Assembly (NCBI RefSeq): GCF_003334305.1
Contig: NZ_QOWS01000004.1
DNA: 64,000 bases
From: Escherichia coli
GTDB lineage: Bacteria > Pseudomonadota > Gammaproteobacteria > Enterobacterales > Enterobacteriaceae
Reading direction: 5' to 3' (one strand)
In this document: piece after piece, positions 44,445-60,084 of the stretch
How positions within the stretch are numbered: the first letter of the stretch is position 1
Layout of the letters: the number at the start of each line of letters is the position of its first letter
Position numbers and translations under genes: made by a program
Notes under the pieces: generated by a model
What the model saw: the letters and a program-made list of their open reading frames with translations, nothing else
Told to the model about the DNA's origin: nothing
Databases searched by the model: none

Positions 44445-46243
44445 TAGTAGACATCTCGCTGATAACGGCGCTCTACGCGCAGCTCACTTAAAAATTCATC
44501 CGCCGCTTCGGTGTCCATGCCACCAAATTCGGCAATCACTTCCAGAAGTGCCTGCTCAACGTCTTTCGCCATGCGATTAGCGTCACCGCAGACATAAATA
44601 TGGGCACCGTCATTGATCCAGCGCCACAGCTCCGCGCCCTGTTCGCGCAGTTTGTCTTGTACGTAAACTTTTTCTTTTTGGTCGCGCGACCAGGCGAGAT
44701 CGATCCGCGTCAGCACACCCTCTTTGACGTAGCGCTGCCACTCCACCTGGTAGAGGAAATCTTCCGTAAAGTGCGGGTTGCCAAAGAACAGCCAGTTTTT
44801 ACCCGGTGCTTCGTCGGCAGCACGTTGCTGCATAAAGGCGCGGAACGGCGCGATGCCGGTGCCTGGGCCAATCATAATCACCGGGGTTTCCGGGTTAGCG
44901 GGCAGGCGGAAGTTATCGTTATGTTCGATAAATACGCGGAGTTCGCCCTCTTCTTCCACGCGGTCCGCGAGGAAGCTGGAGGCACCACCGGCACGGGCGC
45001 GGCCTTCCACGTCGTAACGCACCACACCAACGGTGACGTGTACTTCGTTCTCGACTTCCGCCTGCGAGGAGGCGATGGAATACAGACGCGGCGTCAGCGG
45101 GCGCAGCAGATTAATTAGCGCTTCGGCATCAAGCTGTGCCGGGGAGAAACGCACCATGTCAACAATCGGCGTCGTCGCGGCGTAATGCTGTAACTTCGCT
45201 TTATCGCCCACCAGCGGCAGCAGTGTTTCACTGCGGGTAAGCGTGGCGTAATTCTCAACAATGTTGGCGGTGTTGACGGTCAGTTCGAAGTGCCACTGTA
45301 GCGCTTCGTTCAGAGGCAACGTTTTGCCCTCGACGGTGACAGGTTCATCGCCTGTCAGCCACAGCAGTTCGACAAGTTCTTTCACCAGTGCCGGATCGTT
45401 CTGATACCAGACGCCCAGCGCGTCACCCGGCTGGTAACGCAGGCCCGAGTCACCTAAGTCAATTTCGATATGGCGAACGTCTTTTTCAGAGTTACGCCCG
45501 GTAATTTTCTGGTTAACAGAGAGGCTAGCCACCAGTGGCGCGTCTTTGCTGTACGGGCTGGTGTGGATTTCATTTACCGCGCCAGTAGCGACGGATTGCG
45601 AAGGTGCCGCGACAGGCGCACGCGATTTAAGCGCATCAACCACGCGGGCGCGCCACTCGCTGGCAGCAGCCTGGTATTCAACATCGGCATCGACACGGTC
45701 GAGCAGGCGTTCACCGCCCAGTTCCGCCAGCTTGCTGTCGAAATCTTTCCCGGACTGGCAGAAAAATTCATAAGAGCTATCGCCGAGGCTAAACACGGCA
45801 AACGCGGTGTTTTCCAGCTTTGGCGCTTTTTTGGAGAACAGGAACTTATGCAGCGCGACGGCTTCTTCCGGCGGTTCCCCTTCCCCTTGCGTTGACGTCA
45901 CCACGATAAGCAGTTTTTCGCTGGCGATTTGTTTGAATTTATAGTCGCCCGCGTTCACCAGCTTAACGTTCAGTTTTGCCGTCAATAAATCATCGCGTAA
46001 TGCTTCAGCAACCCGGCGCGCATTGCCGGTTTGCGAAGCAGAGATAATAGTTATACCCGGCATTTCTGCGGCTGGCGCTGGCGTCGCTGCAAGCGCAGCA
46101 GGCTGCTGATTGAGCACGCCCCAGAAATAGCCAGAAACCCAGGCAAGCTGGGTGGGAGTTAAATCGGTCGTGGCCGCCTGAAGGCGTGCCAGTTGCTCCG
46201 GGTTCAACGGAAGCAACGCGGAAGGTGGGACCTGTGTCGTCAT
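44444..46243 (-). CDS. cysJ: Sulfite reductase flavoprotein alpha subunit
   Basis: 599 aa with a flavodoxin domain and an FNR-like domain (RLYSIASS). Confidence 0.96.
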
Positions 46244-46558
46244 GCGTCGTTATGTTCCAGTAAGCAAAGCTGTTTCTGCGCCCTGTCAGCGCCCATAAAA
46301 CAGAAGAGAAGGTAAGGTTAACGGGGCAAATGGTGTGGATTAAAGACGGGATAGCGATAACTAATAACCAAATCGACTAACCTGTTTTAGCAATAGTCTT
46401 TAACAACAAAATAGATTAACCAACCCAATGAAAAACAAATGAATTTAGCCAATCATTAAGATAAATCAGCGATTTTGCGCAACAAAGTCGTTTTAGATAA
46501 TGCGAAAAAACAGCCTTTCCGGTACTCTACGGCGGTTTTATCGTCCTGTAGAGAAATT

Positions 46559-46924
46559 ATGATGTCCACCACGTTATTTAAAGATTTCACCTTCGAAGCC
46601 GCTCACCGCTTACCACACGTCCCGGAAGGGCATAAATGTGGTCGCCTGCACGGGCATTCCTTTATGGTGCGACTGGAAATTACCGGGGAAGTCGATCCGC
46701 ATACGGGCTGGATTATCGATTTCGCTGAACTAAAAGCGGCGTTTAAACCAACCTACGAGCGCCTCGATCACCATTATCTCAATGATATTCCAGGTCTGGA
46801 AAACCCAACCAGCGAGGTTTTAGCAAAATGGATTTGGGATCAGGTTAAACCCGTTGTGCCGCTGTTAAGTGCGGTGATGGTAAAAGAAACCTGTACCGCA
46901 GGTTGTATCTATCGCGGCGAATGA
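46559..46924 (+). CDS. queD: 6-carboxy-5,6,7,8-tetrahydropterin synthase (queuosine biosynthesis)
   Basis: 121 aa from [35 protein letters not shown], the PTPS family. Confidence 0.93.
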
Positions 46925-47001
46925 TAAGAGTGTGTCGGCGGTCAATTTCCCTTAAGTAACGCTATGTTAGGGTGTTGTGTTCTGGATATCTGGGGCATGA
47001 C

Positions 47002-48273
47002 ATGGAAGACGACTGCGACATTATTATTATTGGTGCCGGTATTGCAGGCACCGCTTGCGCGTTACGCTGCGCACGAGCGGGTTTATCCGTTTTGTTACTG
47101 GAACGCGCTGAAATCCCCGGCAGCAAAAATCTTTCCGGCGGGCGGTTATATACCCATGCACTCGCGGAACTCCTCCCGCAATTTCATCTGACCGCGCCTC
47201 TTGAACGACGCATCACTCACGAAAGCCTTTCCCTGTTAACGCCCGATGGCGTAACGACGTTTTCCAGCTTACAGCCCGGCGGTGAATCCTGGAGTGTATT
47301 ACGTGCACGGTTCGATCCGTGGCTGGTTGCCGAAGCCGAAAAAGAAGGTGTCGAATGCATCCCCGGAGCGACGGTGGATGCACTGTATGAAGAAAACGGC
47401 AGGGTGTGTGGTGTCATTTGTGGTGACGATATTCTCCGCGCCCGTTATGTGGTGCTGGCAGAAGGTGCCAACAGCGTCCTGGCTGAACGTCACGGATTAG
47501 TGACTCGTCCTGCTGGCGAAGCGATGGCGTTGGGGATCAAAGAAGTGCTGTCGCTGGAAACATCCGCTATTGAAGAACGTTTTCATCTGGAGAATAACGA
47601 AGGCGCAGCGTTGCTGTTCAGCGGCAGGATCTGTGATGACTTACCCGGCGGCGCATTTCTTTATACTAATCAACAAACGCTCTCGTTAGGGATTGTTTGC
47701 CCGCTCTCTTCCCTTACGCAAAGTCGTGTTCCGGCAAGCGAGCTGCTGACTCGCTTTAAAGCGCATCCGGCAGTGCGCCCGCTTATCAAAAACACGGAAT
47801 CACTGGAGTATGGTGCGCATCTGGTGCCAGAAGGTGGCTTGCACAGTATGCCGGTGCAATACGCCGGTAACGGCTGGCTGCTGGTGGGCGATGCGTTGCG
47901 CAGTTGCGTCAATACCGGAATTTCCGTGCGCGGCATGGATATGGCGCTGACTGGCGCGCAGGCGGCGGCACAAACGCTGATAAGCGCCTGCCAGCACCGC
48001 GAGCCGCAAAATCTGTTTGCGCTTTATCATCACAACGTAGAGCGCAGCCTGCTATGGGATGTTCTACAACGTTATCAGCATGTTCCGGCGCTTTTGCAAC
48101 GCCCTGGCTGGTATCGGGCGTGGCCTGCGTTAATGCAGGATATTTCCCGCGATTTATGGGATCAGGGTGATAAACCTGTTCCACCGCTGCGCCAGTTATT
48201 CTGGCGTCATTTACGTCGTCATGGCCTGTGGCATCTGGCGGGCGATGTTATCAGGAGTCTGCGATGTCTGTAG
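47002..48273 (+). CDS. ygcN: FixC-like FAD-dependent ETF:quinone-type oxidoreductase
   Basis: 423 aa from MEDDCDIIIIGAGIAGTACALRCARAG, an FAD dinucleotide fold. Followed by a FixX-like ferredoxin gene. Confidence 0.88.
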   Translation: MEDDCDIIIIGAGIAGTACALRCARAGLSVLLLERAEIPGSKNLSGGRLYTHALAELLPQFHLTAPLERRITHESLSLLTPDGVTTFSSLQPGGESWSVLRARFDPWLVAEAEKEGVECIPGATVDALYEENGRVCGVICGDDILRARYVVLAEGANSVLAERHGLVTRPAGEAMALGIKEVLSLETSAIEERFHLENNEGAALLFSGRICDDLPGGAFLYTNQQTLSLGIVCPLSSLTQSRVPASELLTRFKAHPAVRPLIKNTESLEYGAHLVPEGGLHSMPVQYAGNGWLLVGDALRSCVNTGISVRGMDMALTGAQAAAQTLISACQHREPQNLFALYHHNVERSLLWDVLQRYQHVPALLQRPGWYRAWPALMQDISRDLWDQGDKPVPPLRQLFWRHLRRHGLWHLAGDVIRSLRCL

Positions 48274-48524
48274 CCCATAATCTCTGGCGCGTTGCTGATG
48301 CGCCGCACATTGTTCCGGCTGACTCCGTTGAGCGTCAGATGGTACAACGGTTGATTAACGCCTGTCCGGCAGGTCTTTTTTCGCTCACACCGGAAGGTGA
48401 CTTACGCGTTGATTATCACGGCTGCCTGGAGTGTGGCACCTGCCGTTTGCTGTGCGACGAATCCACACTACAACAGTGGCGCTATCCGCCTTCCGGATTC
48501 GGCATCACCTACCGCTTTGGATAA
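48264..48524 (+). CDS. ygcO: FixX-like ferredoxin
   Basis: 86 aa from MSVAHNLWRV with CPAG...CLECGTCRLLC. AGGAG RBS. 10-nt overlap with ygcN. Confidence 0.85.
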   Translation: MSVAHNLWRVADAPHIVPADSVERQMVQRLINACPAGLFSLTPEGDLRVDYHGCLECGTCRLLCDESTLQQWRYPPSGFGITYRFG

Positions 48525-48540
48525 ATAATAAGGATAATTT

Positions 48541-49116
48541 ATGCCCCTCTTACACCTGCTCCGCCAGAATCCGGTGATTGCTGCCGTTAAAGATAATGCC
48601 AGCCTGCAACTGGCAATCGACTCTGAATGCCAGTTTATTTCCGTGTTGTACGGCAATATCTGCACCATCAGTAATATCGTTAAAAAGATTAAGAACGCCG
48701 GGAAATATGCTTTTATTCATGTTGATTTGCTGGAAGGCGCGTCAAATAAAGAAGTCGTGATTCAGTTTTTGAAACTGGTGACCGAGGCGGACGGCATTAT
48801 CAGTACCAAAGCCTCAATGTTGAAAGCGGCAAGAGCGGAAGGTTTTTTCTGTATTCATCGCCTGTTTATTGTTGATTCAATTTCGTTTCACAACATTGAT
48901 AAGCAAGTTGCGCAATCGAATCCGGATTGTATTGAGATCCTGCCAGGCTGTATGCCCAAAGTGCTGGGCTGGGTGACAGAGAAAATCCGCCAACCGCTGA
49001 TTGCCGGTGGGCTGGTGTGCGATGAAGAAGATGCGCGTAATGCGATTAACGCGGGTGTCGTGGCGCTTTCCACCACGAATACCGGGGTCTGGACGTTAGC
49101 GAAAAAATTACTTTGA
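48541..49116 (+). CDS. ygcP: GlpP-family (glycerol-3-phosphate responsive type) transcription antiterminator
   Basis: 191 aa MPLLHLLRQNPVIAAVKDNASLQLAI...HVDLLEG..., which resembles GlpP/TIM-barrel antiterminators. K-12 annotates it as a putative antiterminator. Confidence 0.8.
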   Translation: MPLLHLLRQNPVIAAVKDNASLQLAIDSECQFISVLYGNICTISNIVKKIKNAGKYAFIHVDLLEGASNKEVVIQFLKLVTEADGIISTKASMLKAARAEGFFCIHRLFIVDSISFHNIDKQVAQSNPDCIEILPGCMPKVLGWVTEKIRQPLIAGGLVCDEEDARNAINAGVVALSTTNTGVWTLAKKLL

Positions 49117-49149
49117 CGGGATAATCGTAACCAATTGAATTTGGTTTGA

Positions 49150-49260
49150 TTTGTAGGCCGCACGCCACATCCGACATTCAGCGCCTGATGCGACGCTTGA
49201 CGCGTCTTATCAGGCCTACAAGTCCCCAGGCCAGAACCGTAGGCAGGATCATCCGGCAAC
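49150..49260. repeat. BIME / cluster of three REP elements at the convergent ygcP / ygcQ junction
   Basis: GTAGGCCGCACGCCACATCCGACAT, GCCTGATGCGACGCTTGACGCGTCTTATCAGGCCTAC and CGTAGGCAGGATCATCCGGCA. Confidence 0.8.
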
Positions 49261-49263
49261 ACG

Positions 49264-50124
49264 TTATTGGCAATCTGCGTGAATGTTTGTCACCAGTGCC
49301 TCCAGCACCACTTTCCAGTCATCAACCACGCCAACATCTGCCTGTGAAAATACCGCAGCGCTGGCGTCATGATTAATCGCCACCACAAACTTGCTATTGC
49401 GTACGCCCGCCATTAACGCTGCTGCGCCAGAAGCGCCAACAACAATACACACCTCAGGTGCCAGCAGATGTCCGGAAATACCAATCACTTTTTCAGCATC
49501 AACGCCACCGTTCATCACTCGCGCCCGACTGTAGCCCACTTCGGCTCCCAGCTTTTCTGCCAGCATAGCGATTTCCTGGTTATCTGCCTCTCCGCCCTGC
49601 CCCACCACCAGCACCCGTCTGGCCTCAGCTAATGGGTCGCGAGTAACATTTTTCAGATCCTCTGTGCTAACCAGCCAGTCGGGAAGCGCACCCGGGACAA
49701 TGTTCAGTTGTTGCATTCCAGAGGGCAACGTGGCGTTTTTCGCTGCTCCCGCCTGACGCGCCAGGGAAAGGCATAGCGGGCGTTTTTCTGTTTGCAGCGT
49801 CGCCGTTAGCGCATTTCCCCAGTGGGATTTGCGCACGCTTACGGTTGGAATATCTAACGAAGTCACCTGGCAGATGCTTGCACCATGTAAACGCCAGGCC
49901 AGCCGGGTCGACAGTTCATCGCCAAACGTTCCCGGCGGAAAGAGAACAACGTCCGCAGGCGTTCGCTGCCACTGTTCCACCAACGCATCCAGCACCTGTT
50001 CCGCCACTACAGGCTGAGGTTCAATCTGCCAGTGCGCCAGGGTACAACCGCTGAAATCCTGCGCCGCCAGCCAGCTTGCTATTGCGGCATTCTCCTGATT
50101 TATTGTCACAATTGCGATATTCAT
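49264..50124 (-). CDS. ygcQ: Electron transfer flavoprotein alpha subunit paralogue (FixB-like)
   Basis: 286 aa from MNIAIVTINQ... with the C-terminal ETF-alpha FAD domain. Start overlaps the ygcR stop (ATGA). Confidence 0.88.
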   Translation of the reverse strand: MNIAIVTINQENAAIASWLAAQDFSGCTLAHWQIEPQPVVAEQVLDALVEQWQRTPADVVLFPPGTFGDELSTRLAWRLHGASICQVTSLDIPTVSVRKSHWGNALTATLQTEKRPLCLSLARQAGAAKNATLPSGMQQLNIVPGALPDWLVSTEDLKNVTRDPLAEARRVLVVGQGGEADNQEIAMLAEKLGAEVGYSRARVMNGGVDAEKVIGISGHLLAPEVCIVVGASGAAALMAGVRNSKFVVAINHDASAAVFSQADVGVVDDWKVVLEALVTNIHADCQ

Positions 50125-50900
50125 GGCTGCATCCTTTGGCGTAAATAGTCCTGCCATAGCTTTTGAGCTTTTTCTGCTACCGTTTGCCCATCAATCAGCG
50201 TCGCTCCGCGTCGTTGCTCTGCTCTTGCCAGTTGCAGACACTGCATCGCTGGCATTTCGGCAGCAACAGTTTTACGGATAATTTCTGCTTTCCCCGCAGC
50301 CATTCGCTGGCGCATTCCCGGTACTGGCAAGGCCACTTCACCGCACTGACGCACGGCAATCACCGCAGGCAAGCGAACCCGGCAACAACGCAAACCATGT
50401 TCAGTACGCTGTTCGAGGGTGATAAACAGCGCGTCGAGAGTGAAACGCTCCACCTGGGTGAAGCAGGGCCAGCCCAGCATTTCCGCCAGCAAAAATGGCG
50501 TTTGCCCATTCTGCCCTTCGCTGCTTTGGCAGCCGGTAATTATCAGATCCAGCGGATTCTGATGCTGCCATTCGGCAATATGGCGAGCGACAAATTCCGG
50601 CGCAAAGCGCAGATCTGCCGCCGTCTCCAGCAATACAGCTTCCTCAAACCCAAGAGCCATGAGATAGCGCAGCCAGTGCAATGCCCGTTCATCCCCCATG
50701 CTCAACGCGGTTAAAGACATCGGCGTACCGTTTTTTCTCTGCGCCAACAGCAGCGCGGCAGCGGCCTGTTCATCAGCACCGAGTAAACTTCGCAGTAGCG
50801 AAATATCCGGTCCGCTTTTACCCTGAGCCGCCGCCTGCCACTCTTTTTCCGCCAGCATTCCGGCATCCGGTTCGGCTTTAAACGCTAACAGAATGTTCAT
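50121..50900 (-). CDS. ygcR: Electron transfer flavoprotein beta subunit paralogue (FixA-like)
   Basis: 259 aa from MNILLAFKAEPD. GGAGGTG RBS upstream of the ATG at 50900. Confidence 0.88.
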   Translation of the reverse strand: MNILLAFKAEPDAGMLAEKEWQAAAQGKSGPDISLLRSLLGADEQAAAALLLAQRKNGTPMSLTALSMGDERALHWLRYLMALGFEEAVLLETAADLRFAPEFVARHIAEWQHQNPLDLIITGCQSSEGQNGQTPFLLAEMLGWPCFTQVERFTLDALFITLEQRTEHGLRCCRVRLPAVIAVRQCGEVALPVPGMRQRMAAGKAEIIRKTVAAEMPAMQCLQLARAEQRRGATLIDGQTVAEKAQKLWQDYLRQRMQP

Positions 50901-52215
50901 TCGCACCTCCTACATTTCCCGCCGCCACCAGCGGGAGGGCTTTAGTTTCTGGTGCCCATAGCCAGGTCACAACAAAACCAACCAACAACACTGTCGCCAG
51001 GAGCAATAAGGTGACTTGCATTCCCCACTGCGCCAGCACCCACGGCAGCAGGCCAGTACTTACCGCCGCGCCAAGTCGACTCATGGCGGTGGCAAAACCG
51101 ACGCCCAGCGAGCGAATGTCAGTAGGAAAACTTTCCGCAGGCAAAATGCCCACCAGATTACTGACTGCCGAAATGGTGGTGCTGAAGAGAACAAAAAGCA
51201 GCAGCGTTAATGAACTGCCGGAAGGCAAACAGGCCATGACTACCAGCGTTGCCGCCAGCAGCAAAAAACTTCCCAGCAAAAATTTGCGATGTGCCAGCAG
51301 GTGCGTCAGAACTAATCCCAGCAGCGCGCCCACAATTAACAACGCATTAAGCATCAGGCTGGCAGTCAGCGCATCTTCCAGACCAATAGTCTGGGCGATA
51401 GTTGGCAGCCAGGTATAAATCACAAACCATGGGATTACGAGGCAGACAAAGAAGACGCTGTTAAACGCCGTTCGCCGCCAGTAACGCGAAGAGAACAAGG
51501 TTTTGATGTGTTTATGGGTCGCCGTTACCACTTCATCGCCCAGTAAAACATGGGGACCAAAATAGCGATGCACGATAGCGTGAGCTTCTGCAAAACGCCC
51601 CTGGCGCAGTAGCCAGCGTGGTGATTCTGGCGTTCCCCAGCGTAATAACGTAATCAACAACGCGGGCAGAGCTGCCGATGCCAGTAGCCAGCGCCAGGCC
51701 TCCGGGTTTTCGGAAATAAAGTGATGTCCGGCAATACTTGCCAGCACATAGCCTACGGTCCACACCACGCTGAATGCGCCCAGCAAAATACCGCGATGGC
51801 GGCGCGGGGAAAATTCAGCCAGCAAGGTGTGACCTACTGAATAATCGCCTCCCAGACCAATGCCAATCAAAATGCGCAGTCCAATAAGATGCTCTGGCGT
51901 GGTGGCAAAAAATTGTAAAAACGAAGCAAGCGTAATCAGCAAAAAGCTGAAGGTGAAGATTTTTTGCCGACCAATATGGTCGGAGATCCACCCAAGAACC
52001 AGGCTGCCAAGGAACAAACCAAGGAGCGCCGAGCCGCCGATCATTCCCGCCATAAACGGCGTCAGTTGCATGGCGGGCGTAAGCTGAATAATGGCGTAAC
52101 CAATGACGCCGAGAACATAACCGTCGGTCAGGTGTGCGCCGAAAGTGAGCGCAGCAATGCGGCAGTGAAAACGGTTAAGCGGTAAATCATCCATTCGCAC
52201 CGGTGAAGTGTTCAT
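50878..52215 (-). CDS. ygcS: MFS sugar-porter-family transporter
   Basis: 445 aa from MNTSPVRMDDLPLNRFH, with 12 TM helices and a GRQK-type loop motif. Confidence 0.85.
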   Translation of the reverse strand: MNTSPVRMDDLPLNRFHCRIAALTFGAHLTDGYVLGVIGYAIIQLTPAMQLTPFMAGMIGGSALLGLFLGSLVLGWISDHIGRQKIFTFSFLLITLASFLQFFATTPEHLIGLRILIGIGLGGDYSVGHTLLAEFSPRRHRGILLGAFSVVWTVGYVLASIAGHHFISENPEAWRWLLASAALPALLITLLRWGTPESPRWLLRQGRFAEAHAIVHRYFGPHVLLGDEVVTATHKHIKTLFSSRYWRRTAFNSVFFVCLVIPWFVIYTWLPTIAQTIGLEDALTASLMLNALLIVGALLGLVLTHLLAHRKFLLGSFLLLAATLVVMACLPSGSSLTLLLFVLFSTTISAVSNLVGILPAESFPTDIRSLGVGFATAMSRLGAAVSTGLLPWVLAQWGMQVTLLLLATVLLVGFVVTWLWAPETKALPLVAAGNVGGANEHSVSV

Positions 52216-52308
52216 CTTTACCCCTTCATTGTCCGGTAATAAGAACGGCTTCTCGCCTGAGAAGCCGAAAAGGCAACGCCCCGTCATCGCGGAACGCTGC
52301 CTGACACA

Positions 52309-53763
52309 TTATTTTTCAATCGGATAGATAGTACCCGTATTCATAATGCCATTAGGATCGAACTGCTTTTTCAGCCCTTCCAGCAACGCCCACGCGCTGC
52401 CGTGTTCCAGTTTGCTCCAGTGAACGCGATGTTTACCGATACCGTGGTGGTGCACCATCGAACCGCCGAGGCGAATGGTTTCTTCACAGATGATCTTGTT
52501 GAGCGGATTGTGGTACTTGTCGATTTCCTCTTCCGGCTTACAGTCAACGACGTTGTAATCGTAGACGAAGTACATGTTGGTGCCGTTCTGATAGCTATGA
52601 GAGGAATGACCGCCCAGCATGGTGATGTCGTCGGCGTGCGGGAACTCAGTACGAATACGGTTAATAACGCTTTCGTAGATTTCGTGGATGCAGCTCCAGC
52701 AGCCGGACACTTCAGTGGTAAAGCCCATGTTGCCGGTTTTGAGGATCTGCACACGTTCGGCAGCCACTTTATCCGGTCCCCAGTTCAGGTTGTTAAACCA
52801 GGTTTCGATCAGCTTGCTGTCCACGCGCTGGCATTGCGGGTAGCGGGCAACGATTTCCGCAATCCCTTCGCCCGTCGCCTTCGCAATGCGAGGGTTACCT
52901 TCAGCCATAAAGATCAGCACGCATTTTCCGTCTGCAAAATGGGTGAAGTGTTGGGTGCCATCTTCAGCGTCATACAAACGAGCGATCGACGGACGATACC
53001 CTTCCACCATGACTTCACGCAGGATGTTGAAGCCGGTTTTCATGTCTTCCAGGATATAGCCGTAGAAGAGGTTGTTTTCCGGGGTGAATTTAAAGATTTT
53101 CACTGTTACTTCAGTGATATAGCAAAGTGCACCTTCGTTACCGATGATGATGTGGCGAATGTCCGGGCCAGCCGCGCGGCGTGGCACGTTTTTAATGCGT
53201 GTGACGGTGCCATCAGCCAATACTGCTTCCAGACCAACGACCATATCTTCGATTGCGCCGTAGAGTGTGGAGAACTGCCCGATACTGCGGGTTGCTACCA
53301 GGCCGCCCATCTGAGCCAGCGGCTTTGACTGCGGAGAATGCCCCGTGGTGTAACCTTTTTCACGCAACGCATTTTCCAGCACCTCCAGCGGAACGCCACA
53401 TTGCGCCGTCGCCTGCATATTCTCAATATCAATATTAATGATTTGATTCATGGCGGAGCCGTCGAGCACCACCGAGTTTTCCACAACGGTTTCCAGCCCA
53501 CCTTCAGTGGCGGAAGCGCCGGTACGCGGCACACCGTTAATTTTGTGCGCATTCATAAAATTCAGCACACGGGAGACTTGTTCTGTGGAACCGAGTTTTA
53601 CGACCGCTGCCGGAATCGGCAAAGTATAAATACCATGAATATCCGGAAATTTACGAAAACGGTCAATACTGTTCTTCTTTAATACTGTTTCATCGGTAAT
53701 TACGCGATCTGCACCAACAATTTCCTTTAGCTGGTCGACAATCGCTGCGCGAGATAAAGACAT
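52309..53763 (-). CDS. ygcU: FAD-linked oxidase (GlcD / alkyl-DHAP-synthase-like, PCMH fold)
   Basis: 484 aa with an N-terminal FAD-binding-4 domain (VPRTGASATEGG) and C-terminal HHHGIGK. Confidence 0.88.
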   Translation of the reverse strand: MSLSRAAIVDQLKEIVGADRVITDETVLKKNSIDRFRKFPDIHGIYTLPIPAAVVKLGSTEQVSRVLNFMNAHKINGVPRTGASATEGGLETVVENSVVLDGSAMNQIINIDIENMQATAQCGVPLEVLENALREKGYTTGHSPQSKPLAQMGGLVATRSIGQFSTLYGAIEDMVVGLEAVLADGTVTRIKNVPRRAAGPDIRHIIIGNEGALCYITEVTVKIFKFTPENNLFYGYILEDMKTGFNILREVMVEGYRPSIARLYDAEDGTQHFTHFADGKCVLIFMAEGNPRIAKATGEGIAEIVARYPQCQRVDSKLIETWFNNLNWGPDKVAAERVQILKTGNMGFTTEVSGCWSCIHEIYESVINRIRTEFPHADDITMLGGHSSHSYQNGTNMYFVYDYNVVDCKPEEEIDKYHNPLNKIICEETIRLGGSMVHHHGIGKHRVHWSKLEHGSAWALLEGLKKQFDPNGIMNTGTIYPIEK

Positions 53764-53832
53764 AGTAATTCCTTCCTGATAATAAAAATGGAATAATCAT
53801 TAATAAGAGAAAACAGAAACCACCGTTATGGA

Positions 53833-54618
53833 TTAGCGCACTAAATAACCACCATCGACCACTAATAAATGCCCATTGACATAATTTGAAGCCGGACTTG
53901 CGAGGAATACAGCTGCGCCCATTAAATCCTGAGTATCGCCCCAACGGTTTGCCGGAATATGATCAAGAACGCGCTGATTGGTTTCTGGATTACTGCGTGT
54001 CGCCAGCGTAATATCTGTTGCATAATAGCCAGGGGCGATACCATTTACCTGAATATTATATTGACCTAGCTCATCACAATAAGCTTTGGTGAACCCGGCA
54101 AGAGCATGTTTAGTGGCAGAATATGCAGGTGACCATTGTCCACCTAAGTAAGAGAACAATGAACAGATATTAATAATTTTGCCGCTTTTCTGCGGGATCA
54201 TAATTTTTGCAGCTTCATAGCTTAACTCGAATGCGGCGGTCAGGTTCACATCAATCATCGGATCCCAGTCGGCACGACCGAAGTCCAGCACCTTATTCAG
54301 CTTACAAATACCGGCATTGTTTACCAGAATATCAACTGTACCGAAACGCTCACAGCAAGCAGCGATAATCTTCTGCGGCGCGCCTTCTGCGGTGATATCC
54401 ACCTGCATGAAGTCCACCTCAACACCCTGTTTTTCAATCATTTCCTTTGTTTCGCCGTTATCTTTGACGAAACTAGGAATAAAGATATTTGCGCCAGCTT
54501 TGGCCAACGCCATGGCAAATGCCTGGCCTAAACCGCTATTCCCACCGGTAACAATTGCGGTTTTACCTTTCAGTGAGAAAAAATCCATTGAGAACGCATT
54601 GAGAGATTCGATTGACAT
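53833..54618 (-). CDS. ygcW: Short-chain dehydrogenase/reductase (KduD/gluconate 5-dehydrogenase-like)
   Basis: 261 aa from MSIESLNAFSMDFFSLKGKTAIVTGGNSGLGQA with catalytic YSATK. GGAG RBS upstream of the ATG at 54618. Confidence 0.88.
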   Translation of the reverse strand: MSIESLNAFSMDFFSLKGKTAIVTGGNSGLGQAFAMALAKAGANIFIPSFVKDNGETKEMIEKQGVEVDFMQVDITAEGAPQKIIAACCERFGTVDILVNNAGICKLNKVLDFGRADWDPMIDVNLTAAFELSYEAAKIMIPQKSGKIINICSLFSYLGGQWSPAYSATKHALAGFTKAYCDELGQYNIQVNGIAPGYYATDITLATRSNPETNQRVLDHIPANRWGDTQDLMGAAVFLASPASNYVNGHLLVVDGGYLVR

Positions 54619-54641
54619 AGTTAGCTCCAATTTCCGTAAGG

Positions 54642-54707
54642 CAAAAAAAAAGAAAGGTAACTTCCCCCGCGAGAGGGAAGTTACCTTTCTCATTATCTCT
54701 GGTAACT
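54642..54707 (-). promoter_or_regulatory. ygcW leader attenuator: intrinsic terminator plus overlapping antiterminator helix
   Basis: The minus-strand RNA reads AGUUACC-AGAGAUAAUGAGAAA-GGUAACU, the alternative helix. It overlaps the terminator AGAAAGGUAACUUCCC-UCUCGCGG-GGGAAGUUACCUUUCU-U9. The terminator ends 24 nt before the ygcW ATG. Confidence 0.7.
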
Positions 54708-54739
54708 GGAGATAATTTTTAGCATAACGGCATAACTGC

Positions 54740-54761
54740 TAATGTGATCGTAATCACAGTG
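54740..54761. promoter_or_regulatory. CRP-cAMP binding site centred between the divergent ygcW and yqcE promoters
   Basis: taaTGTGAtcgtaaTCACAgtg, a perfect TGTGA-N6-TCACA core. Confidence 0.7.
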
Positions 54762-54849
54762 TGATATTCGTATTGTCAAATAGTTTTAAAAAGCAGAAGC
54801 GTGATTACTCTCACACAACACCTCTGCTTTCCATGTTATTTCTTATTGC

Positions 54850-54912
54850 AATTACTAGAGACCTGAGAAAAGTAATCCACCTGAAAGGGCGGCTTACTTT
54901 TCTCTTTTTTTT
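54850..54912 (+). promoter_or_regulatory. yqcE leader attenuator: intrinsic terminator plus overlapping antiterminator helix
   Basis: The plus-strand RNA reads AUUACU-AGAGACCUGAGAA-AGUAAU, the alternative helix. It overlaps the terminator GAGAAAAGUAAUCCACC-UGAAAG-GGGCGGCUUACUUUUCUC-U8. The terminator ends 24 nt before the yqcE ATG. Confidence 0.65.
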
Positions 54913-54936
54913 GTCTATTACAAATGGGAATACGAT

Positions 54937-56214
54937 ATGCAACACAACTCATATCGCCGTTGGATAACCCTCGCGATAATTAGTTTTAGCGGCGGCGTTA
55001 GTTTCGACCTGGCTTATTTACGTTATATTTATCAAATTCCCATGGCGAAATTTATGGGATTCAGCAATACCGAGATAGGTTTAATAATGAGTACCTTTGG
55101 TATTGCGGCTATTATTCTTTATGCCCCCAGCGGCGTTATTGCCGATAAATTTTCACACCGCAAAATGATTACTTCCGCGATGATCATTACCGGATTACTG
55201 GGTCTGTTAATGGCAACGTATCCACCGCTGTGGGTAATGCTCTGTATTCAGGTCGCCTTTGCGATAACGACGATTTTAATGCTGTGGTCGGTGTCGATTA
55301 AAGCCGCCTCGTTGCTGGGCGATCATAGTGAGCAAGGGAAAATTATGGGCTGGATGGAAGGGCTGCGCGGCGTCGGTGTAATGTCGCTGGCGGTGTTTAC
55401 CATGTGGGTCTTTTCTCGCTTTGCACCGGATGACAGCGCCAGCCTGAAAACAGTCATTATCATCTACAGTGTGGTTTACATCTTGTTGGGGATTCTGTGC
55501 TGGTTTTTTGTTAGCGATAACAACAACCTGCGCAGTGCCAATAACGAAGAAAAACAGTCATTCCAGCTTAGCGACATCCTTGCCGTTTTGCGTATCAGCA
55601 CCACCTGGTATTGCAGCATGGTGATTTTTGGTGTCTTCACAATCTACGCCATTCTGAGTTACTCCACCAACTATCTGACCGAAATGTACGGCATGTCGCT
55701 GGTGGCAGCGAGCTACATGGGGATTGTGATCAACAAAATCTTCCGCGCGCTGTGCGGCCCACTTGGCGGCATTATCACCACCTACAGTAAAGTGAAATCC
55801 CCTACCCGCGTGATCCAAATCCTTTCCGTACTCGGCCTGCTGGCGTTAACTGCCCTGCTCGTCACGAACTCTAACCCGCAATCGGTCGCGATGGGGATTG
55901 GCCTGATTTTACTGCTGGGATTCACCTGTTACGCCTCACGCGGGCTGTACTGGGCCTGCCCTGGCGAAGCGAGAACACCGTCTTACATTATGGGCACCAC
56001 GGTAGGTATTTGTTCGGTGATTGGATTCCTGCCGGATGTCTTCGTTTACCCGATTATCGGCCACTGGCAAGACACCCTGCCCGCAGCAGAAGCCTACCGC
56101 AATATGTGGCTGATGGGAATGGCGGCGCTTGCCATGGTGATTGTCTTTACCTTTTTGCTGTTCCAAAAAATTCGTACTGCTGATAGCGCCCCCGCAATGG
56201 CTAGCAGCAAGTAA
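54937..56214 (+). CDS. yqcE: MFS transporter
   Basis: 425 aa, polytopic, divergent from ygcW. Confidence 0.85.
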   Translation: MQHNSYRRWITLAIISFSGGVSFDLAYLRYIYQIPMAKFMGFSNTEIGLIMSTFGIAAIILYAPSGVIADKFSHRKMITSAMIITGLLGLLMATYPPLWVMLCIQVAFAITTILMLWSVSIKAASLLGDHSEQGKIMGWMEGLRGVGVMSLAVFTMWVFSRFAPDDSASLKTVIIIYSVVYILLGILCWFFVSDNNNLRSANNEEKQSFQLSDILAVLRISTTWYCSMVIFGVFTIYAILSYSTNYLTEMYGMSLVAASYMGIVINKIFRALCGPLGGIITTYSKVKSPTRVIQILSVLGLLALTALLVTNSNPQSVAMGIGLILLLGFTCYASRGLYWACPGEARTPSYIMGTTVGICSVIGFLPDVFVYPIIGHWQDTLPAAEAYRNMWLMGMAALAMVIVFTFLLFQKIRTADSAPAMASSK

Positions 56215-56240
56215 GCCAGGAAAATTACAGGAGAAAAATC

Positions 56241-57719
56241 ATGTCGAAAAAATACATCATAGGGATTGATGGCGGAAGTCAGAGCACAAAAGTGGTGATG
56301 TACGATCTGGAAGGTAACGTGGTTTGCGAAGGCAAAGGCTTATTACAGCCGATGCACACGCCAGATGCCGATACTGCAGAACATCCTGACGACGATTTAT
56401 GGGCATCATTATGTTTTGCAGGTCACGATTTGATGAGCCAGTTTGCCGGGAATAAAGAAGATATTGTTGGCATCGGCCTGGGCTCCATCCGTTGCTGCCG
56501 TGCGTTATTGAAAGCCGACGGCACGCCAGCTGCGCCGTTGATTAGCTGGCAGGATGCACGCGTTACACGCCCTTACGAACATACGAATCCTGACGTGGCG
56601 TATGTCACCTCTTTTTCGGGTTATCTGACGCATCGCTTAACCGGCGAGTTTAAAGACAATATCGCCAACTATTTTGGTCAGTGGCCGGTGGATTATAAGA
56701 GCTGGGCATGGAGCGAAGATGCTGCGGTAATGGATAAGTTTAATATCCCCCGTCATATGCTGTTTGATGTGCAAATGCCTGGCACCGTCCTCGGACATAT
56801 CACACCACAAGCCGCACTGGCGACACATTTCCCGGCAGGACTGCCGGTTGTTTGTACCACCAGTGATAAACCGGTAGAAGCTCTGGGGGCCGGATTACTG
56901 GATGATGAAACTGCGGTAATTTCTCTTGGCACTTACATCGCATTGATGATGAACGGCAAAGCACTGCCGAAAGATCCGGTGGCGTACTGGCCGATTATGT
57001 CTTCTATTCCGCAAACATTGCTGTATGAAGGTTACGGTATTCGCAAAGGTATGTGGACGGTGAGCTGGCTGCGTGACATGTTAGGCGAGTCGTTAATTCA
57101 GGATGCCAGGGCGCAGGATCTTTCACCGGAAGATTTACTCAACAAGAAAGCCTCTAGTGTGCCACCTGGCTGTCATGGGCTGATGACGGTGCTGGACTGG
57201 CTGACCAATCCGTGGGAACCGTACAAACGCGGGATTATGATCGGCTTTGATTCCAGCATGGATTACGCATGGATATATCGTTCGATATTGGAAAGTGTGG
57301 CGCTAACGCTGAAGAACAATTACGACAATATGTGTAATGAAATGAATCACTTTGCGAAGCATGTGATCATTACTGGCGGCGGTTCGAACAGCGATCTGTT
57401 TATGCAAATTTTTGCCGACGTGTTCAACCTTCCGGCACGCCGTAACGCCATTAACGGTTGTGCAAGTCTGGGAGCAGCGATTAATACAGCGGTAGGTCTG
57501 GGGCTATACCCGGATTACGCAACGGCTGTTGATAAGATGGTTCGCGTGAAAGATATCTTTATACCGATTGAGAGCAATGCCAAACGCTACGACGCGATGA
57601 ATAAAGGCATTTTCAAAGACCTAACCAAACATACTGATGTGATCCTGAAAAAATCGTATGAAGTGATGCATGGGGAATTGGGGAATGTGGATTCGATCCA
57701 GAGCTGGTCGAATGCGTAA
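56241..57719 (+). CDS. ygcE: FGGY-family carbohydrate kinase
   Basis: 492 aa MSKKYIIGIDGGSQSTKVVMYD..., the FGGY N-terminal motif, with a C-terminal GGGSNS. Confidence 0.88.
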   Translation: MSKKYIIGIDGGSQSTKVVMYDLEGNVVCEGKGLLQPMHTPDADTAEHPDDDLWASLCFAGHDLMSQFAGNKEDIVGIGLGSIRCCRALLKADGTPAAPLISWQDARVTRPYEHTNPDVAYVTSFSGYLTHRLTGEFKDNIANYFGQWPVDYKSWAWSEDAAVMDKFNIPRHMLFDVQMPGTVLGHITPQAALATHFPAGLPVVCTTSDKPVEALGAGLLDDETAVISLGTYIALMMNGKALPKDPVAYWPIMSSIPQTLLYEGYGIRKGMWTVSWLRDMLGESLIQDARAQDLSPEDLLNKKASSVPPGCHGLMTVLDWLTNPWEPYKRGIMIGFDSSMDYAWIYRSILESVALTLKNNYDNMCNEMNHFAKHVIITGGGSNSDLFMQIFADVFNLPARRNAINGCASLGAAINTAVGLGLYPDYATAVDKMVRVKDIFIPIESNAKRYDAMNKGIFKDLTKHTDVILKKSYEVMHGELGNVDSIQSWSNA

Positions 57720-57727
57720 GTGAGGAA

Positions 57728-57751
57728 GGCCGGGCGGGAAACTGCCCGGCC
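57728..57751 (+). terminator. Hairpin after ygcE (possible terminator, no U-tract)
   Basis: GGCCGGGC-gggaaact-GCCCGGCC, 8 nt after the stop codon. Confidence 0.4.
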
Positions 57752-57764
57752 TGAACATACCTGA

Positions 57765-57903
57765 ATGGTTATCCCCGCTGACGCGGGGAACATAAGTTCG
57801 ACAACTTAAAAAATGATAACAAGTCCGGTTTATCCCCGCTGATGCAGGGAACATAATAAAAACTTTAACTAGTTCGGTTTATCCCTGTTTTTACAAGGAA
57901 TAT
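57765..57903 (-). CRISPR. Decayed CRISPR remnant: three degenerate type I-E repeats
   Basis: ATGGTTATCCCCGCTGACGCGGGGAACAT (57765-57793, 5 mismatches). CGGTTTATCCCCGCTGATGCAGGGAACAT (57826-57854, 4 mismatches). CGGTTTATCCCTGTTTTTACAAGGAATAT (57875-57903, heavily decayed). The first spacer is 32 nt and the second only 20 nt. Confidence 0.8.
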
Positions 57904-58357
57904 TAACTACACTCGATGTCTTTAGAATAAAAGACAATACGAATCGCACTTTATCAATTTTCACTTAAAGTATGAACTGGATATCTTTATTCATAAGAAC
58001 TATTCATCAACAGCGTATAGAGGCGGTTATGTAAAACCACTCATTAGCCTCAAAACAAAGACAAACTTCCAGATTTATTACTTAACCAATGAATAACAAG
58101 CTTAAAAAATATACTGTTATTCTAAAGAAAAAATTAACAGGCATTAATTCAATATTAAAAAAATAATAGATTAAAATTTCTTAACGATTTAAGAATCATA
58201 CAAATAACACTTTGATTAAATTTAATTTTTTGTATCGATAATTGTGAACCTCTCTGGCATGGAGAACTATTTTGAACATGAGGTGTTACGTGGATATGTT
58301 GCTTATTACAAGTACTGCTAATATAAAAACTTGAGAAAGAGATAACGGGTTATATGG

Positions 58358-58935
58358 TGGTTTATCCCCGCTGGCGCGGGGAGCTCAACATCGGAAACGG
58401 CTTCGCGGCGGCGGCGTCCGGTTTATCCCCGCTGGCGCGGGGAGCTCTACGTGAAGAATATTTGCAACACCCGCAAGAACGGTTTATCCCCGCTGGCGCG
58501 GGGAGCTCGGCATAGCCAGGCTGATCCGGCGACGGCCTTACGGTTTATCCCCGCTGGCGCGGGGAACACTGTTCGGCGGGGCGGTAGTACCACTGTTTTT
58601 TCGGTTTATCCCCGCTGGCGCGGGGAACACATCAACATGCAGCGCGAACGGCTGCCCCTCGCCGGTTTATCCCCGCTGGCGCGGGGAACACTCTTATTCA
58701 GTCCCCTTTTCCATCTGCTGTGGCGGTTTATCCCCGCTGGCGCGGGGAACACGTAAATTGCGACGTCCTGCGCCAGTAATTCAACGGTTTATCCCCGCTG
58801 GCGCGGGGAACACGATGCGGCAGCGGCGGCGGGAAGTTATCGCGGCGGTTTATCCCCGCTGGCGCGGGGAACACCTTTCAATATAGTCAGAAAAGTCTTT
58901 TGGCAACGGTTTATCCCCGCTGGCGCGGGGAACAC
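58358..58935 (-). CRISPR. Second type I-E CRISPR array (no adjacent cas genes): 10 repeats, 9 spacers of 32 nt
   Basis: Repeats start at 58358 and recur every 61 nt up to 58907. The seven leader-proximal copies match the array-1 consensus (…GGGGAACAC). The three distal copies end …GGGGAGCTC, and the outermost of these begins with T instead of C. Confidence 0.97.
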
Positions 58936-59110
58936 TCTAAACATAACCTATTATTAATTAATGATTTTTTAAGCCAGTCACAATCTACCAACTTTATAGT
59001 ATCACACAAACAACACATCCATTATGTTAAAGAGCACTTAATCCATTGATTAAAAAGGTAAATATTTAAAATAACTCTATACAAACTAAAATCTACCAAA
59101 CTTTACCGCA
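58936..59110 (-). promoter_or_regulatory. Leader of the second CRISPR array
   Basis: AT-rich. It contains the same ACAATCTACCAACT block as leader 1, at the same 45-nt distance from the first repeat, and a related repeat-proximal GGTTATGTTTAGA. Confidence 0.7.
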
Positions 59111-59274
59111 ATAATTTTCACTCCAGCGAAAAATTAATGCCACAGAATTTGTAGAGAATGCTAATGATTAGCCCTGGATGGGTAAAATGGAGGAGTTTTC
59201 AGAGGCGACAAACAATATAAATGAGTAGAAGTCTTTACAGGTTCCACCCATTTATAACGCTTATAAATGTTTAA

Positions 59275-59946
59275 TCAGGCAATATTTAGATATTTATGTG
59301 TTTGCATCGACAAACGCCAATTACGCGCAATGCAGGTTTCAATGCACAAACGTGTGGCATCATCCTTTTGGCTAATCGGCTGCAGTGCAATGACTCGCGG
59401 TTTATCATCGGTCAGCGTTGCCAGTAGTTCATCCAGTGCTTCAATATCACGTACGCGCCCCACTGGATGCTTGATTTCGTTGGCTCGCTCCAGTGCCTGT
59501 GACAACACGTCATAGCCGCCGCGCATGTTCAGCTTTGGCGATACGGTAACCCAGGTATTCGGTGTGCAGCGTACTTCATGAGTTCCACTGGTTTCGATCT
59601 GGCAGCTAAAACCGTTCTTTTCGAGCAGGTCAGTCAGTGGCAGCAAATCATGAATGCAAGGCTCACCACCCGTAATCACCACATGCCGCGCGGTATATCC
59701 CTGCCGACCAATGACAGCCAGCAAATCTTCACTGCTCGCCGCCCCCCACTTATCACTCTCTTTGGTCTTCGCCAGAATGCTGAAAAGGGAGACTTCCCGA
59801 TCCTCAAGCTTTTCCCAGGTGTGTTTGGTGTCGCACCAGGCACAGCCAACCGGGCATCCCTGTAAACGAATAAAAATGGCGGGGACGCCGGTAAAGTAAC
59901 CCTCACCTTGCAGGGTCTGGAACATCTCGTTAATCGGGTACTGCAT
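59275..59946 (-). CDS. queE: 7-carboxy-7-deazaguanine synthase (radical SAM, queuosine pathway)
   Basis: 223 aa MQYPINEMFQTLQGEGYFTGVPAIFIRLQGCPVGCAWCDTKHTW, an atypical radical-SAM Cx14CxxC motif. Confidence 0.93.
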   Translation of the reverse strand: MQYPINEMFQTLQGEGYFTGVPAIFIRLQGCPVGCAWCDTKHTWEKLEDREVSLFSILAKTKESDKWGAASSEDLLAVIGRQGYTARHVVITGGEPCIHDLLPLTDLLEKNGFSCQIETSGTHEVRCTPNTWVTVSPKLNMRGGYDVLSQALERANEIKHPVGRVRDIEALDELLATLTDDKPRVIALQPISQKDDATRLCIETCIARNWRLSMQTHKYLNIA

Positions 59947-60084
59947 AGCATTCTCTGTGAAGTGGATAATTGTTAATTATTGCAGATCCTGCCACAACAA
60001 TCATGTCTTATTAACATTCTGTTACAGGCAGATTTAAAGAAAAATGCGAAACATATCGTTAATAATTAAAGGGAGTAACGTATT

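Follow-up and report, generated by a model that had tools for sequence, protein, structure and literature searches.

A spacer of 318 bp separates ygcW from yqcE in Escherichia coli, and it raises the question of how the two divergent operons that start there are switched on. The spacer occupies positions 54619-54936 of a stretch of 64,000 nucleotides of E. coli DNA (contig NZ_QOWS01000004.1 of assembly GCF_003334305.1), referred to here as the window. Each operon is preceded by a leader RNA in which a strong intrinsic terminator overlaps a small upstream hairpin with a purine-rich loop, and ygcP, which encodes a GlpP-family protein, lies nearby. We consider it probable that these are two CRP-dependent leaders governed by YgcP-type antitermination, a variant of the GlpP mechanism. 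The kind of mechanism is known from Bacillus; new are the E. coli system, the RNA subclass, the regulon and the explanation of existing raw signals.

Terminators and Competing Hairpins in the Two Leaders

The ygcW leader RNA extends from 54709 down to 54643 on the minus strand, as delimited by folding, a covariance model, a published transcript (ecr2774) and Term-seq data. Its putative antiterminator helix pairs AGUUACC (54707 to 54701) with GGUAACU (54685 to 54679) around the loop AGAGAUAAUGAGAAA (54700 to 54686). The terminator is composed of a stem (54691 to 54652) and a tract of nine U residues (54651 to 54643), which ends 24 nt before the ATG at 54618. It folds with -30.6 kcal/mol (z = -7.8) and has 19 pairs according to a terminator scan, which found seven terminator-like sites in the region where 0.7 were expected. 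The yqcE leader RNA (54848-54912, plus strand), for which the evidence comes from folding, the covariance model, a northern blot of the published transcript ecr2775 and Term-seq, is built alike. AUUACU (54851-54856) can pair with AGUAAU (54871-54876) around the loop AGAGACCUGAGAAA (54857-54870), and the terminator stem (54865-54904; -20.5 kcal/mol, z = -5.0) is followed by eight U residues (54905-54912), the last of which again lies 24 nt before the ATG, here at 54937.

In both leaders, the 3' strand and the loop of the upstream hairpin overlap the 5' arm of the terminator. Terminators and alternative helices had both been proposed in a preliminary description of this DNA, and coordinates and folding bear them out. 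Folded alone, however, the upstream hairpins of 6-7 bp reach just -6.7 kcal/mol (ygcW) and -1.4 kcal/mol (yqcE). Since they are far weaker than the terminators, the alternative fold would need a stabilizing factor, and the folding energies imply that the leader RNA in isolation would always form the terminator.

The consensus of the element consists of a helix, AGUUACY/RGUAACU, and a purine loop of 14-15 nt in which AGAGA-N3-4-GAGAAA provides two GAGA boxes. The first 12-13 nt of the terminator 5' arm are formed by the second of these boxes together with the 3' strand of the helix. A covariance model built from orthologous leaders matched just the two leaders in the 64-kb window (83.9 bits for ygcW and 79.4 bits for yqcE); its one other signal there was a faint echo on the reverse strand, due to the palindromic ygcW terminator. 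The pattern GAGA-N3-4-GAGA occurs twice in the window, both times in these leaders. No third copy of the motif was found in the window, upstream of ygcN, or upstream of the detached ygcS of Serratia- and Pantoea-type loci.

Two familiar explanations were considered and rejected. A known riboswitch or other cis-regulatory RNA is not indicated, as a scan of positions 44000-60000 against Rfam 15 in E-value mode gave no match to a relevant curated family. Nothing was reported over the yqcE leader, and over the ygcW leader there was just a chance-level match to rliE (21.5 bits against a gathering score of 90). The comparison with Rfam that the preliminary description had called for thus yields no family for the element. 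Attenuation by a leader peptide is not plausible either, as the yqcE leader contains no AUG. The loop of the ygcW leader does contain one (AUAAUGAGAAA, at 54693 on the minus strand), which is in frame and yields a "long" ygcW open reading frame of 286 amino acids. Many orthologous leaders lack it and have GAAGAGAAA or CCUGAGAAA instead, and it is therefore unlikely to be a real start codon or to belong to a leader peptide.

Covariation of the Shared Strand in Enterobacterales

A scan seeded on YgcP, with one genome per species, yielded 80 loci, ranging from Escherichia to Erwinia, Pantoea, Serratia and Rahnella and including two Firmicutes. The divergent ygcW/yqcE pair is present in 69 of them, with ygcP always within ~6 kb despite differences in gene order. 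Both leaders with their terminators, and with them the shared motif and the loop blocks that had been described as conserved, are kept in 68 of the 69 enterobacterial spacers. In an alignment of the 118 distinct leaders from these 68 spacers (alignment A1), the blocks TTAC, GAG, GAGAAA and GT are invariant, and the upper stem and loop of the terminator vary freely.

The antiterminator helix is paired in 94.3% of the cells of this alignment, against 14-54% when its 3' partner is slid by 1-3 columns. Two of its pairs change in a compensatory manner: pair 13-43 is GC in 84 leaders and AU in 33, with one exception, and pair 18-38 is UA in 85 and CG in 29, the other four being exceptions. Column 38 changes in step with column 72 as well, its partner in the terminator (AU in 87 leaders, GC in 29). 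Such three-way covariation is, at the level of the alignment, the signature of two mutually exclusive helices with one common strand. The compensatory change that the preliminary description had noticed between the two E. coli leaders therefore extends to the family, where the shared strand covaries with both partners. An alignment of the hairpin segments alone, made with MAFFT (A2), was discarded because rows whose loop has an insertion of 3 nt had their 5' strand misaligned; A1 and the larger alignment A4, described below, were used instead.

Two deviating spacer structures were noticed. In Limnobaculum eriocheiris (L048:13856-13985), the ygcW-yqcE spacer measures just ~130 bp and contains a single bidirectional terminator (A9...U9). 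It lacks the two promoters as well as both upstream hairpin halves, an arrangement that suggests recombination between the inverted leaders. In Klebsiella spallanzanii and Citrobacter youngae (L017 and L018), ~128 bp are inserted between the terminator of the yqcE leader and the yqcE start codon; the insertion presumably resembles an ERIC/IRU enterobacterial repeat.

Published Transcripts and 3' Ends

The spacer of strain MG1655 differs from that of the window by four single-nucleotide polymorphisms in 318 bp, none of them within the RNA elements, and both leaders are identical. Two "potential novel sRNAs" (small RNAs) have been listed in the spacer (Romero et al., 2014; PMC4681348, Table S5). 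One, ecr2774, is encoded on the minus strand (2898315-2898388, 73 nt), and the other, ecr2775, on the plus strand (2898527-2898590, 63 nt). The latter was detected on a northern blot, with an abundance that varied with the medium, and both were described as "single extended stem-loop; perhaps REP-like" (PMC4681348). For conversion from U00096.2 to U00096.3, where ygcW is at 2900273, we inferred a shift of 1976 ± 2 nt, an uncertainty that the quoted ends of both RNAs carry. Mapped to the window, ecr2774 runs from ~54709 to 54636 and ecr2775 from ~54848 to 54911, so that each begins at a predicted start and reaches its terminator. The distance between the two 5' ends, which does not depend on the offset, is 139 nt, against 141 nt predicted. 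The short transcripts that the preliminary description had anticipated were thus already in print, one of them with a northern blot.

Term-seq in LB at an optical density of 0.4 revealed 3' ends at 2900311 on the minus strand and 2900556 on the plus strand (Adams et al., 2021; PMC7815308, supplementary file 3). In the window, these are positions 54656 and 54901, at -38 and -36 from the respective start codons. The ends were supported by 40,640 reads on the ygcW side and 1,557 on the yqcE side, with intrinsic terminator scores of 15.8 and 11.4, and neither was associated with an annotated regulatory element (PMC7815308). Rho-dependent premature termination is ruled out by Rho scores of 0.50 and 0.61, which are below 1 and flagged "No" for Rho dependence (PMC7815308). 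Premature, Rho-independent 3' ends, as had been predicted, therefore exist in both leaders, although their exact positions need to be discussed (see below).

By their coordinates, ecr2774, ecr2775 and the two orphan 3' ends belong to the same RNAs as the two leaders. Neither publication proposes a function, a motif, an antiterminator or a link to YgcP (PMC4681348; PMC7815308). Repetitive extragenic palindromic (REP) sequences or the bacterial interspersed mosaic elements (BIMEs) formed by them, an identity raised for the two RNAs in the former, can be dismissed. The region is present in 5,070 of 5,426 complete E. coli genomes at ≥95% identity, at a median of one place per genome, so that the spacer is a single-copy sequence, and the covariance model has just its two matches in the window.

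Promoters and CRP Sites

An extended -10 element of the ygcW promoter, TGcTAAAAA, is predicted at 54716-54724 on the minus strand, and its TGnTA... is conserved in orthologous spacers. For yqcE, TGtTATTTC is the predicted counterpart (54834-54842, plus strand) and is covered by a CATG(T/C)TATT block conserved in orthologues. Together with the spacing of the CRP sites, these elements (TGnTAAAAA and TGnTATTTC) place the likely starts at ~54709 on the minus strand and ~54850 on the plus strand. The CRP site of the ygcW promoter, TGTGAtcgtaaTCACA (54743-54758), is centred at 54750.5, ~-41.5 from the minus-strand start; a second, CRP-like site, cGTGAttactcTCACA (54800-54815), centred at 54807.5, lies at ~-41.5 from the plus-strand start and would serve the yqcE promoter.

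The preliminary description had recognized the former as a perfect CRP site compatible with class II activation in both directions. Its spacing to ygcW holds, but one site shared by both promoters is ruled out, as there are two sites, each with a fixed distance to its own leader. The centre of the CRP site is found 43.5-44.5 nt upstream of its own hairpin in 62-63 of the 68 spacers. The ygcW site is at 44.5 nt from the ygcW hairpin in 54 of the 68, and the yqcE site, with a score of 9-10 out of 10, at 43.5-44.5 nt from the yqcE hairpin in 59. Both promoters are accordingly predicted to have a class II CRP arrangement, with the hairpin at the extreme 5' end of the RNA. Binding of CRP in the spacer has been reported by Footprint-seq in vitro, with a Kd of 1.7 nM (PMC12871828), and by Genomic SELEX (PMC3105977), and a CRP site in the spacer was also predicted by PhyloScan.

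The element had been presented as undescribed. This is correct in so far as no explanation has been published, but transcripts, 3' ends and CRP binding were already present, uninterpreted, in public data. The searchable literature contains no functional study of ygcP and no description of the RNA element or of a target model for GlpP with tandem GAGA boxes. No functional study was found for ygcE, ygcU, ygcQ or ygcN either, in a search that was swamped by unrelated word matches.

The Element Outside Enterobacterales

The element adjoins homologues of ygcP (54-63% identical) in Vallitalea, Listeria grandensis, Vibrio hannami, Photobacterium, Sporomusa and Thalassobacillus, and it is also found beside such homologues in Fodinisporobacter, Clostridium sediminicola, Anaeromicrobium, one ENA contig and a megaplasmid of Enterococcus gilvus. 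These non-enteric copies are always located directly downstream of a promoter-like -10 element, and they precede whichever operon holds the short-chain dehydrogenase/reductase (SDR), the kinase, the flavin adenine dinucleotide (FAD)-linked oxidase or a transporter of the major facilitator superfamily (MFS) or the BCCT family. The tie between motif and ygcP that had been suggested from the E. coli island alone thus reaches across phyla: with gene order shuffled, the motif lies within 10 kb of ygcP in every informative locus, in a sample in which all loci were seeded on ygcP homologues, i.e., from ygcP towards the motif. A distant-mode search of plasmid DNA with the leaders matched just E. coli chromosomes mislabelled as plasmids.

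Inclusion of the non-enteric members in a model-based alignment of 85 instances (A4) adds further, independent compensatory changes in the helix. Pair 16-40 switches from A-U to G-C in Apirhabdus, Listeria and Fodinisporobacter, pair 14-42 from U-A to C-G in Anaeromicrobium, and pair 12-44 from A-U to G-C in Vallitalea; pair 13-43 has switched repeatedly, and pair 18-38 has a U.G intermediate in Photobacterium. In this alignment, the helix is paired in 94.1% of the cells, against 16-55% in slid controls, and five of the seven pairs change on both sides, which was reached by none of 500 shuffles. RNAalifold predicts the terminator from the same alignment, with 14 pairs of which seven show compensatory changes. 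The second GAGA box of the Listeria element is conserved although it is not part of the terminator stem; hence, conservation of the loop is not a by-product of pairing in the terminator.

The non-enteric loci with a ygcP homologue (L082-L090 and L100) have a conserved core of SDR, FAD-linked oxidase, FGGY kinase and electron-transfer flavoprotein (ETF). Their transporters are often of the BCCT type or are OpuAC/osmoprotectant-type ABC systems instead of MFS proteins, and several have their own RNA element upstream. These transporter types hint at an osmolyte-like or quaternary-amine-bearing polyol, and the substrate of the pathway may thus be osmolyte-like. L. grandensis (L081; proteins P0129, P0131 and P0144) has both a glycerol-type GlpP and a YgcP-type paralogue. 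With two paralogues of PF04309, the family of GlpP, the RNA sites must be distinguished within one cell, which makes this species a natural test case for specificity determinants.

Relation to GlpP and Other Antitermination Systems

The proposed trans-acting antiterminator is encoded by ygcP (48541-49116, plus strand), as suggested by Pfam, by relatives in the PDB and by its linkage to the motif. Residues 12-184 of YgcP match positions 1-173 of the 173 of the PF04309 (G3P_antiterm) profile (E = 1.4e-62), in agreement with its earlier assignment to the GlpP family. Its relatives in the PDB are 3KTS (E = 1e-27) and 1VKF, and PF04309 proteins have a TIM-barrel-like fold. E. coli, a Gram-negative bacterium, controls its glp genes with the repressor GlpR. 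In B. subtilis, GlpP acts by antitermination at the leaders of glpD, glpFK and glpTQ (Holmberg and Rutberg, 1991-92; Glatz et al., 1996, 1998; summarized in PMC9604022 and PMC10573289). The 5' untranslated region (UTR) of glpD makes other promoters inducible by glycerol, and expression from the glpD promoter needs GlpP (PMC9604022).

Glycerol-type loci for comparison were recovered by a protein search seeded on 3KTS and from the plasmid collection, and a metagenome scan with a clostridial glycerol-type protein (P0083) returned three loci. The B. subtilis glpD 5' UTR (sequence from the supplement of PMC9604022) contains GGUC-CUGAGAUGAGGAGA-GACC, which leads straight into a terminator of -40 kcal/mol whose 5' arm begins in the second GAGA box. 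The same layout as in E. coli is thus present in the very leader to which the preliminary description had linked YgcP. The leaders of Priestia megaterium read UGGU-U-GGAGA-AUC-GGAGAG-ACCA (glpD) and UGUG-AC-GGAGA-AUA-GGAGA-UC-CACG (glpF), and those of Staphylococcus aureus UAGAA-UAGAGACGGGAGAU-UUCUA (glpF) and GAAUC-GAGAAACGAGA-GAUUU (glpD). The pattern GAGA-N3-4-GAGA falls in leaders in both of its matches in the S. aureus locus and in two of three in the Priestia locus, as it does in both of its matches in the 64-kb window.

By this common tandem-GAGA layout, the E. coli elements belong to the GlpP target class. Further likenesses are that the regulon or its neighbourhood encodes a PF04309 protein, that the 5' UTR has an intrinsic terminator shortly downstream of the promoter and before the ribosome-binding site, that a kinase and an FAD-dependent dehydrogenase are among the regulated genes, and that the GAGA boxes are placed between short complementary segments, with the second box and the 3' segment starting the terminator 5' arm. 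Catabolite control is superimposed in both, by CcpA in Bacillus and by CRP in E. coli. To judge by the sequences, the E. coli elements are nevertheless a distinct subclass, with a longer, covarying helix and AGAGA...GAGAAA boxes and without cross-detection by the model. Their helix has 6-7 bp and its own conserved GUUAC/GUAAC, against 4-5 bp in the glycerol leaders, where the boxes read GGAGA...GGAGA. YgcP is just ~30-35% identical to glycerol-type GlpPs, its regulon would be the SDR/FAD-oxidase/FGGY-kinase/ETF pathway instead of glycerol utilization, and the two mirror-image copies in one spacer are unlike the Bacillus leaders.

The feature shared with the glycerol leaders also feeds the alternative that survives best. 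YgcP, or a complex with its ligand, might read the two GAGA boxes as single-stranded RNA, in the manner of HutP or TRAP, so that sequestration of the second box would block the terminator and the helix would be accessory. The boxes are indeed the most invariant part of the element, with GAG and GAGAAA identical in all 118 leaders, and tandem GAGA is what the B. subtilis, Priestia and S. aureus glp leaders, with their weakly folding helices of 4-5 bp, have in common with it; even some ygcP-linked copies (Fodinisporobacter and E. gilvus) are down to 4-5 bp. Yet pairing in 94% of cells and compensatory changes at five of seven pairs in the ygcP-linked elements are evidence of selection for pairing, and in Listeria it is the 3' strand of the helix, not the second box, that overlaps the terminator. 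We therefore regard this alternative as unlikely.

The HutP, TRAP and PyrR systems resemble the one proposed here in that the choice between terminator and antiterminator is made by ligand-activated proteins that recognize short purine motifs (UAG/GAG triplets) repeated in a leader. However, these proteins have other folds, HutP and TRAP form oligomeric rings to which the repeats bind as single strands, and TRAP and PyrR promote termination, whereas the YgcP-type element has just two boxes, inside a hairpin loop.

Similar in architecture are the ribonucleic antiterminator (RAT) sites of BglG, SacY and LicT (E. coli bgl, B. subtilis sac and lic). There too, a weak hairpin of ~29 nt extends into the 5' half of a strong terminator and is stabilized by a sugar-responsive protein in the leaders of catabolic operons, one of them in E. 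coli. Nevertheless, the sequence and structure of RAT are unrelated to those of the YgcP-type element, and BglG, SacY and LicT have CAT RNA-binding and PRD domains under control of the phosphotransferase system (PTS). YgcP has neither domain, since PF04309 is its sole match and spans nearly its whole length. Membership of the BglG/SacY-RAT class was therefore rejected; no antiterminator of another family is annotated in the island, and the five other proteins scanned are enzymes or transporters.

Proposed Mechanism and Its Alternatives

In the proposed mechanism, two CRP-dependent class II promoters would fire outward from the spacer, each giving a transcript that starts 1-3 nt before the small antiterminator element, which is comparable to the RAT target of BglG. 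By default, the terminator would win, and transcription would stop ~64 nt downstream, producing ecr2774 and ecr2775. When loaded with its effector, YgcP would bind the hairpin with its GAGA loop on the nascent RNA and hold the shared segment, so that the terminator could not nucleate and RNA polymerase would read into ygcWUSRQ and yqcE-ygcE. By analogy with GlpK, glycerol-3-phosphate and GlpP, the likely effector is the product that results from phosphorylation by the FGGY kinase YgcE. With CRP-dependent promoters and YgcP-gated readthrough, expression would need both cAMP-CRP and a pathway-specific signal.

Several points weigh against this mechanism. Binding by YgcP, its dependence on a ligand and the identity of that ligand are what we infer from the analysis as a whole. 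The Term-seq ends fall within the 3' half of each hairpin stem, 13 nt (ygcW) and 11 nt (yqcE) short of the last U, and not in the U tracts, where the preliminary description had expected them, whilst the RNA-seq-defined ecr2774 and ecr2775 run further 3'. It is possible that such in-stem ends arise from trimming into the A-U-rich base of the stem, or from RNase III acting on the perfect 19-bp duplex of the ygcW terminator. The catabolic genes co-occur with the motif as faithfully as ygcP does, so that linkage alone cannot separate a protein from an RNA sensor, and in E. coli the covariance-model search of the window found no copy of the motif upstream of ygcN-ygcO-ygcP itself. The enteric compensatory changes are each probably one clade-level event, and independent events are modest in number, perhaps ~8-10 across all lineages. 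Finally, the flanking helices of the glycerol leaders, of 4-5 bp, fold no better than shuffled sequence, and the model of the ygcP-linked leaders (R1) does not detect these canonical leaders; the link to the GlpP family is therefore one of shared layout, not of statistical homology.

A different view of the same RNAs is that the terminators are constitutive and define two stable sRNAs, ecr2774 and ecr2775, either trans-acting or mere by-products, next to operons that are silent or leaky. Both RNAs accumulate in standard media and have been catalogued as candidate sRNAs, the read count at the ygcW site is high (40,640), and no inducing condition is known for the operons. This view would, however, leave unexplained why the position of the elements, after a CRP-dependent promoter and before the ribosome-binding site of catabolic operons, is fixed in ~80 genomes, why the upstream strand covaries with the terminator 5' arm, why one and the same element stands ahead of operons of other composition (SDR, kinase, BCCT, MFS or FAD-oxidase) in other phyla, and why a dedicated antiterminator homologue is always close by. 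Together, these features fit a cis-acting switch and not a free-standing sRNA gene, and the chances of this alternative seem slim.

Slimmer still are the chances of a very small riboswitch, in which the purine loop and helix would bind a metabolite of the pathway whilst YgcP would have another role, e.g., as an enzyme-like TIM-barrel protein. The constant company of catabolic genes as well as ygcP, a loop as highly conserved as a riboswitch binding pocket and the TIM-barrel-like fold of PF04309 proteins would agree with it. Against it stand the size of the element, which with ~29 nt and a single helix of 6-7 bp is smaller than almost all known riboswitch aptamers, the lack of an Rfam match, a loop spacer that varies in length and sequence (N3-7), and the presence of the same layout in the B. 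subtilis glpD 5' UTR, which carries glycerol control whilst expression from the glpD promoter requires GlpP. Equally improbable is control by another trans-acting factor, either an RNA-binding protein or an sRNA: YgcP binding is, to be sure, deduced, and E. coli ygcP, with no motif upstream, may be poorly expressed, but the loci have no other conserved regulator, ygcP alone joins the core of SDR, FAD-oxidase and kinase in every one of them, and antitermination at leaders of this layout is known for the PF04309 family.

YgcP-type antitermination would give a testable mechanism for uninterpreted data on E. coli K-12, namely two candidate sRNAs, two strong 3' ends in 5' UTRs and a nanomolar CRP site. 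If it is true, YgcP has a role, and E. coli has a second family of protein-dependent antiterminators. It also provides an explicit model of the RNA target of the GlpP family, i.e., a helix with tandem GAGA boxes that overlaps a terminator. Such a model is of use for structural studies and for designing portable terminator/antiterminator pairs, a purpose that glpD already serves in Bacillus. With a reporter dependent on YgcP, one could screen directly for the inducer and the substrate of the conserved ygcW/U/E pathway. A bolder reading, offered tentatively and with the balance tilted slightly against it, is that a hairpin with two GAGA loop boxes is the RNA code of the whole PF04309 family, from Firmicutes to Proteobacteria, with variants of helix and boxes separating paralogous regulons. 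In E. coli K-12, it would constitute a second, hitherto overlooked circuit of protein-RNA antitermination besides bgl, an AND gate of cAMP-CRP and YgcP with its ligand that controls a cryptic polyol pathway, and the abundant attenuated leaders ecr2774 and ecr2775 might have secondary functions in trans.

Genes of the Locus and Minor Observations

The gene order, as annotated in a K-12-like record, is queD, followed by ygcN-ygcO-ygcP on the plus strand, ygcQ-ygcR-ygcS-ygcU-ygcW on the minus strand and yqcE-ygcE on the plus strand. The minus-strand genes form a presumed operon, ygcW-ygcU-ygcS-ygcR-ygcQ (49264-54618), as judged by gene spacing, with annotation, Pfam and conserved gene order as evidence for its composition. 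It encodes an SDR (YgcW), an FAD-linked oxidase (YgcU), an MFS transporter (YgcS) and the β and α subunits of an ETF (YgcR and YgcQ). On the other side of the spacer, yqcE and ygcE (54937-57719, plus strand) are presumed, from annotation, Pfam and their conserved pairing, to form an operon for an MFS transporter and an FGGY-family kinase. YgcE and YgcU homologues accompany ygcP in nearly all loci with complete flanks, and it is from gene context that they are presumed to be the kinase that makes the phosphorylated effector and an FAD-dependent dehydrogenase of the regulon.

The island is not always complete. In E. coli ECMA0423 (L006) and Shigella flexneri SFBU1023 (L008), it is cut off after ygcS; ygcP is kept, whereas no ygcU, ygcW, spacer, yqcE or ygcE was detected. 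Klebsiella pneumoniae encodes yet another PF04309 protein, a distant third one that shares 26% identity with YgcP (CP125156.1:951593-952147, hit H93). In the gap between the convergent ygcP and ygcQ genes (49143-49216), a weak match to the Rfam family naRNA4 (34 bits, below the gathering score of 59.5) covers REP/BIME-type palindromes. A CRISPR array is located 3' of ygcE (~58359-58752), where the K-12-like record has a direct_repeat feature.

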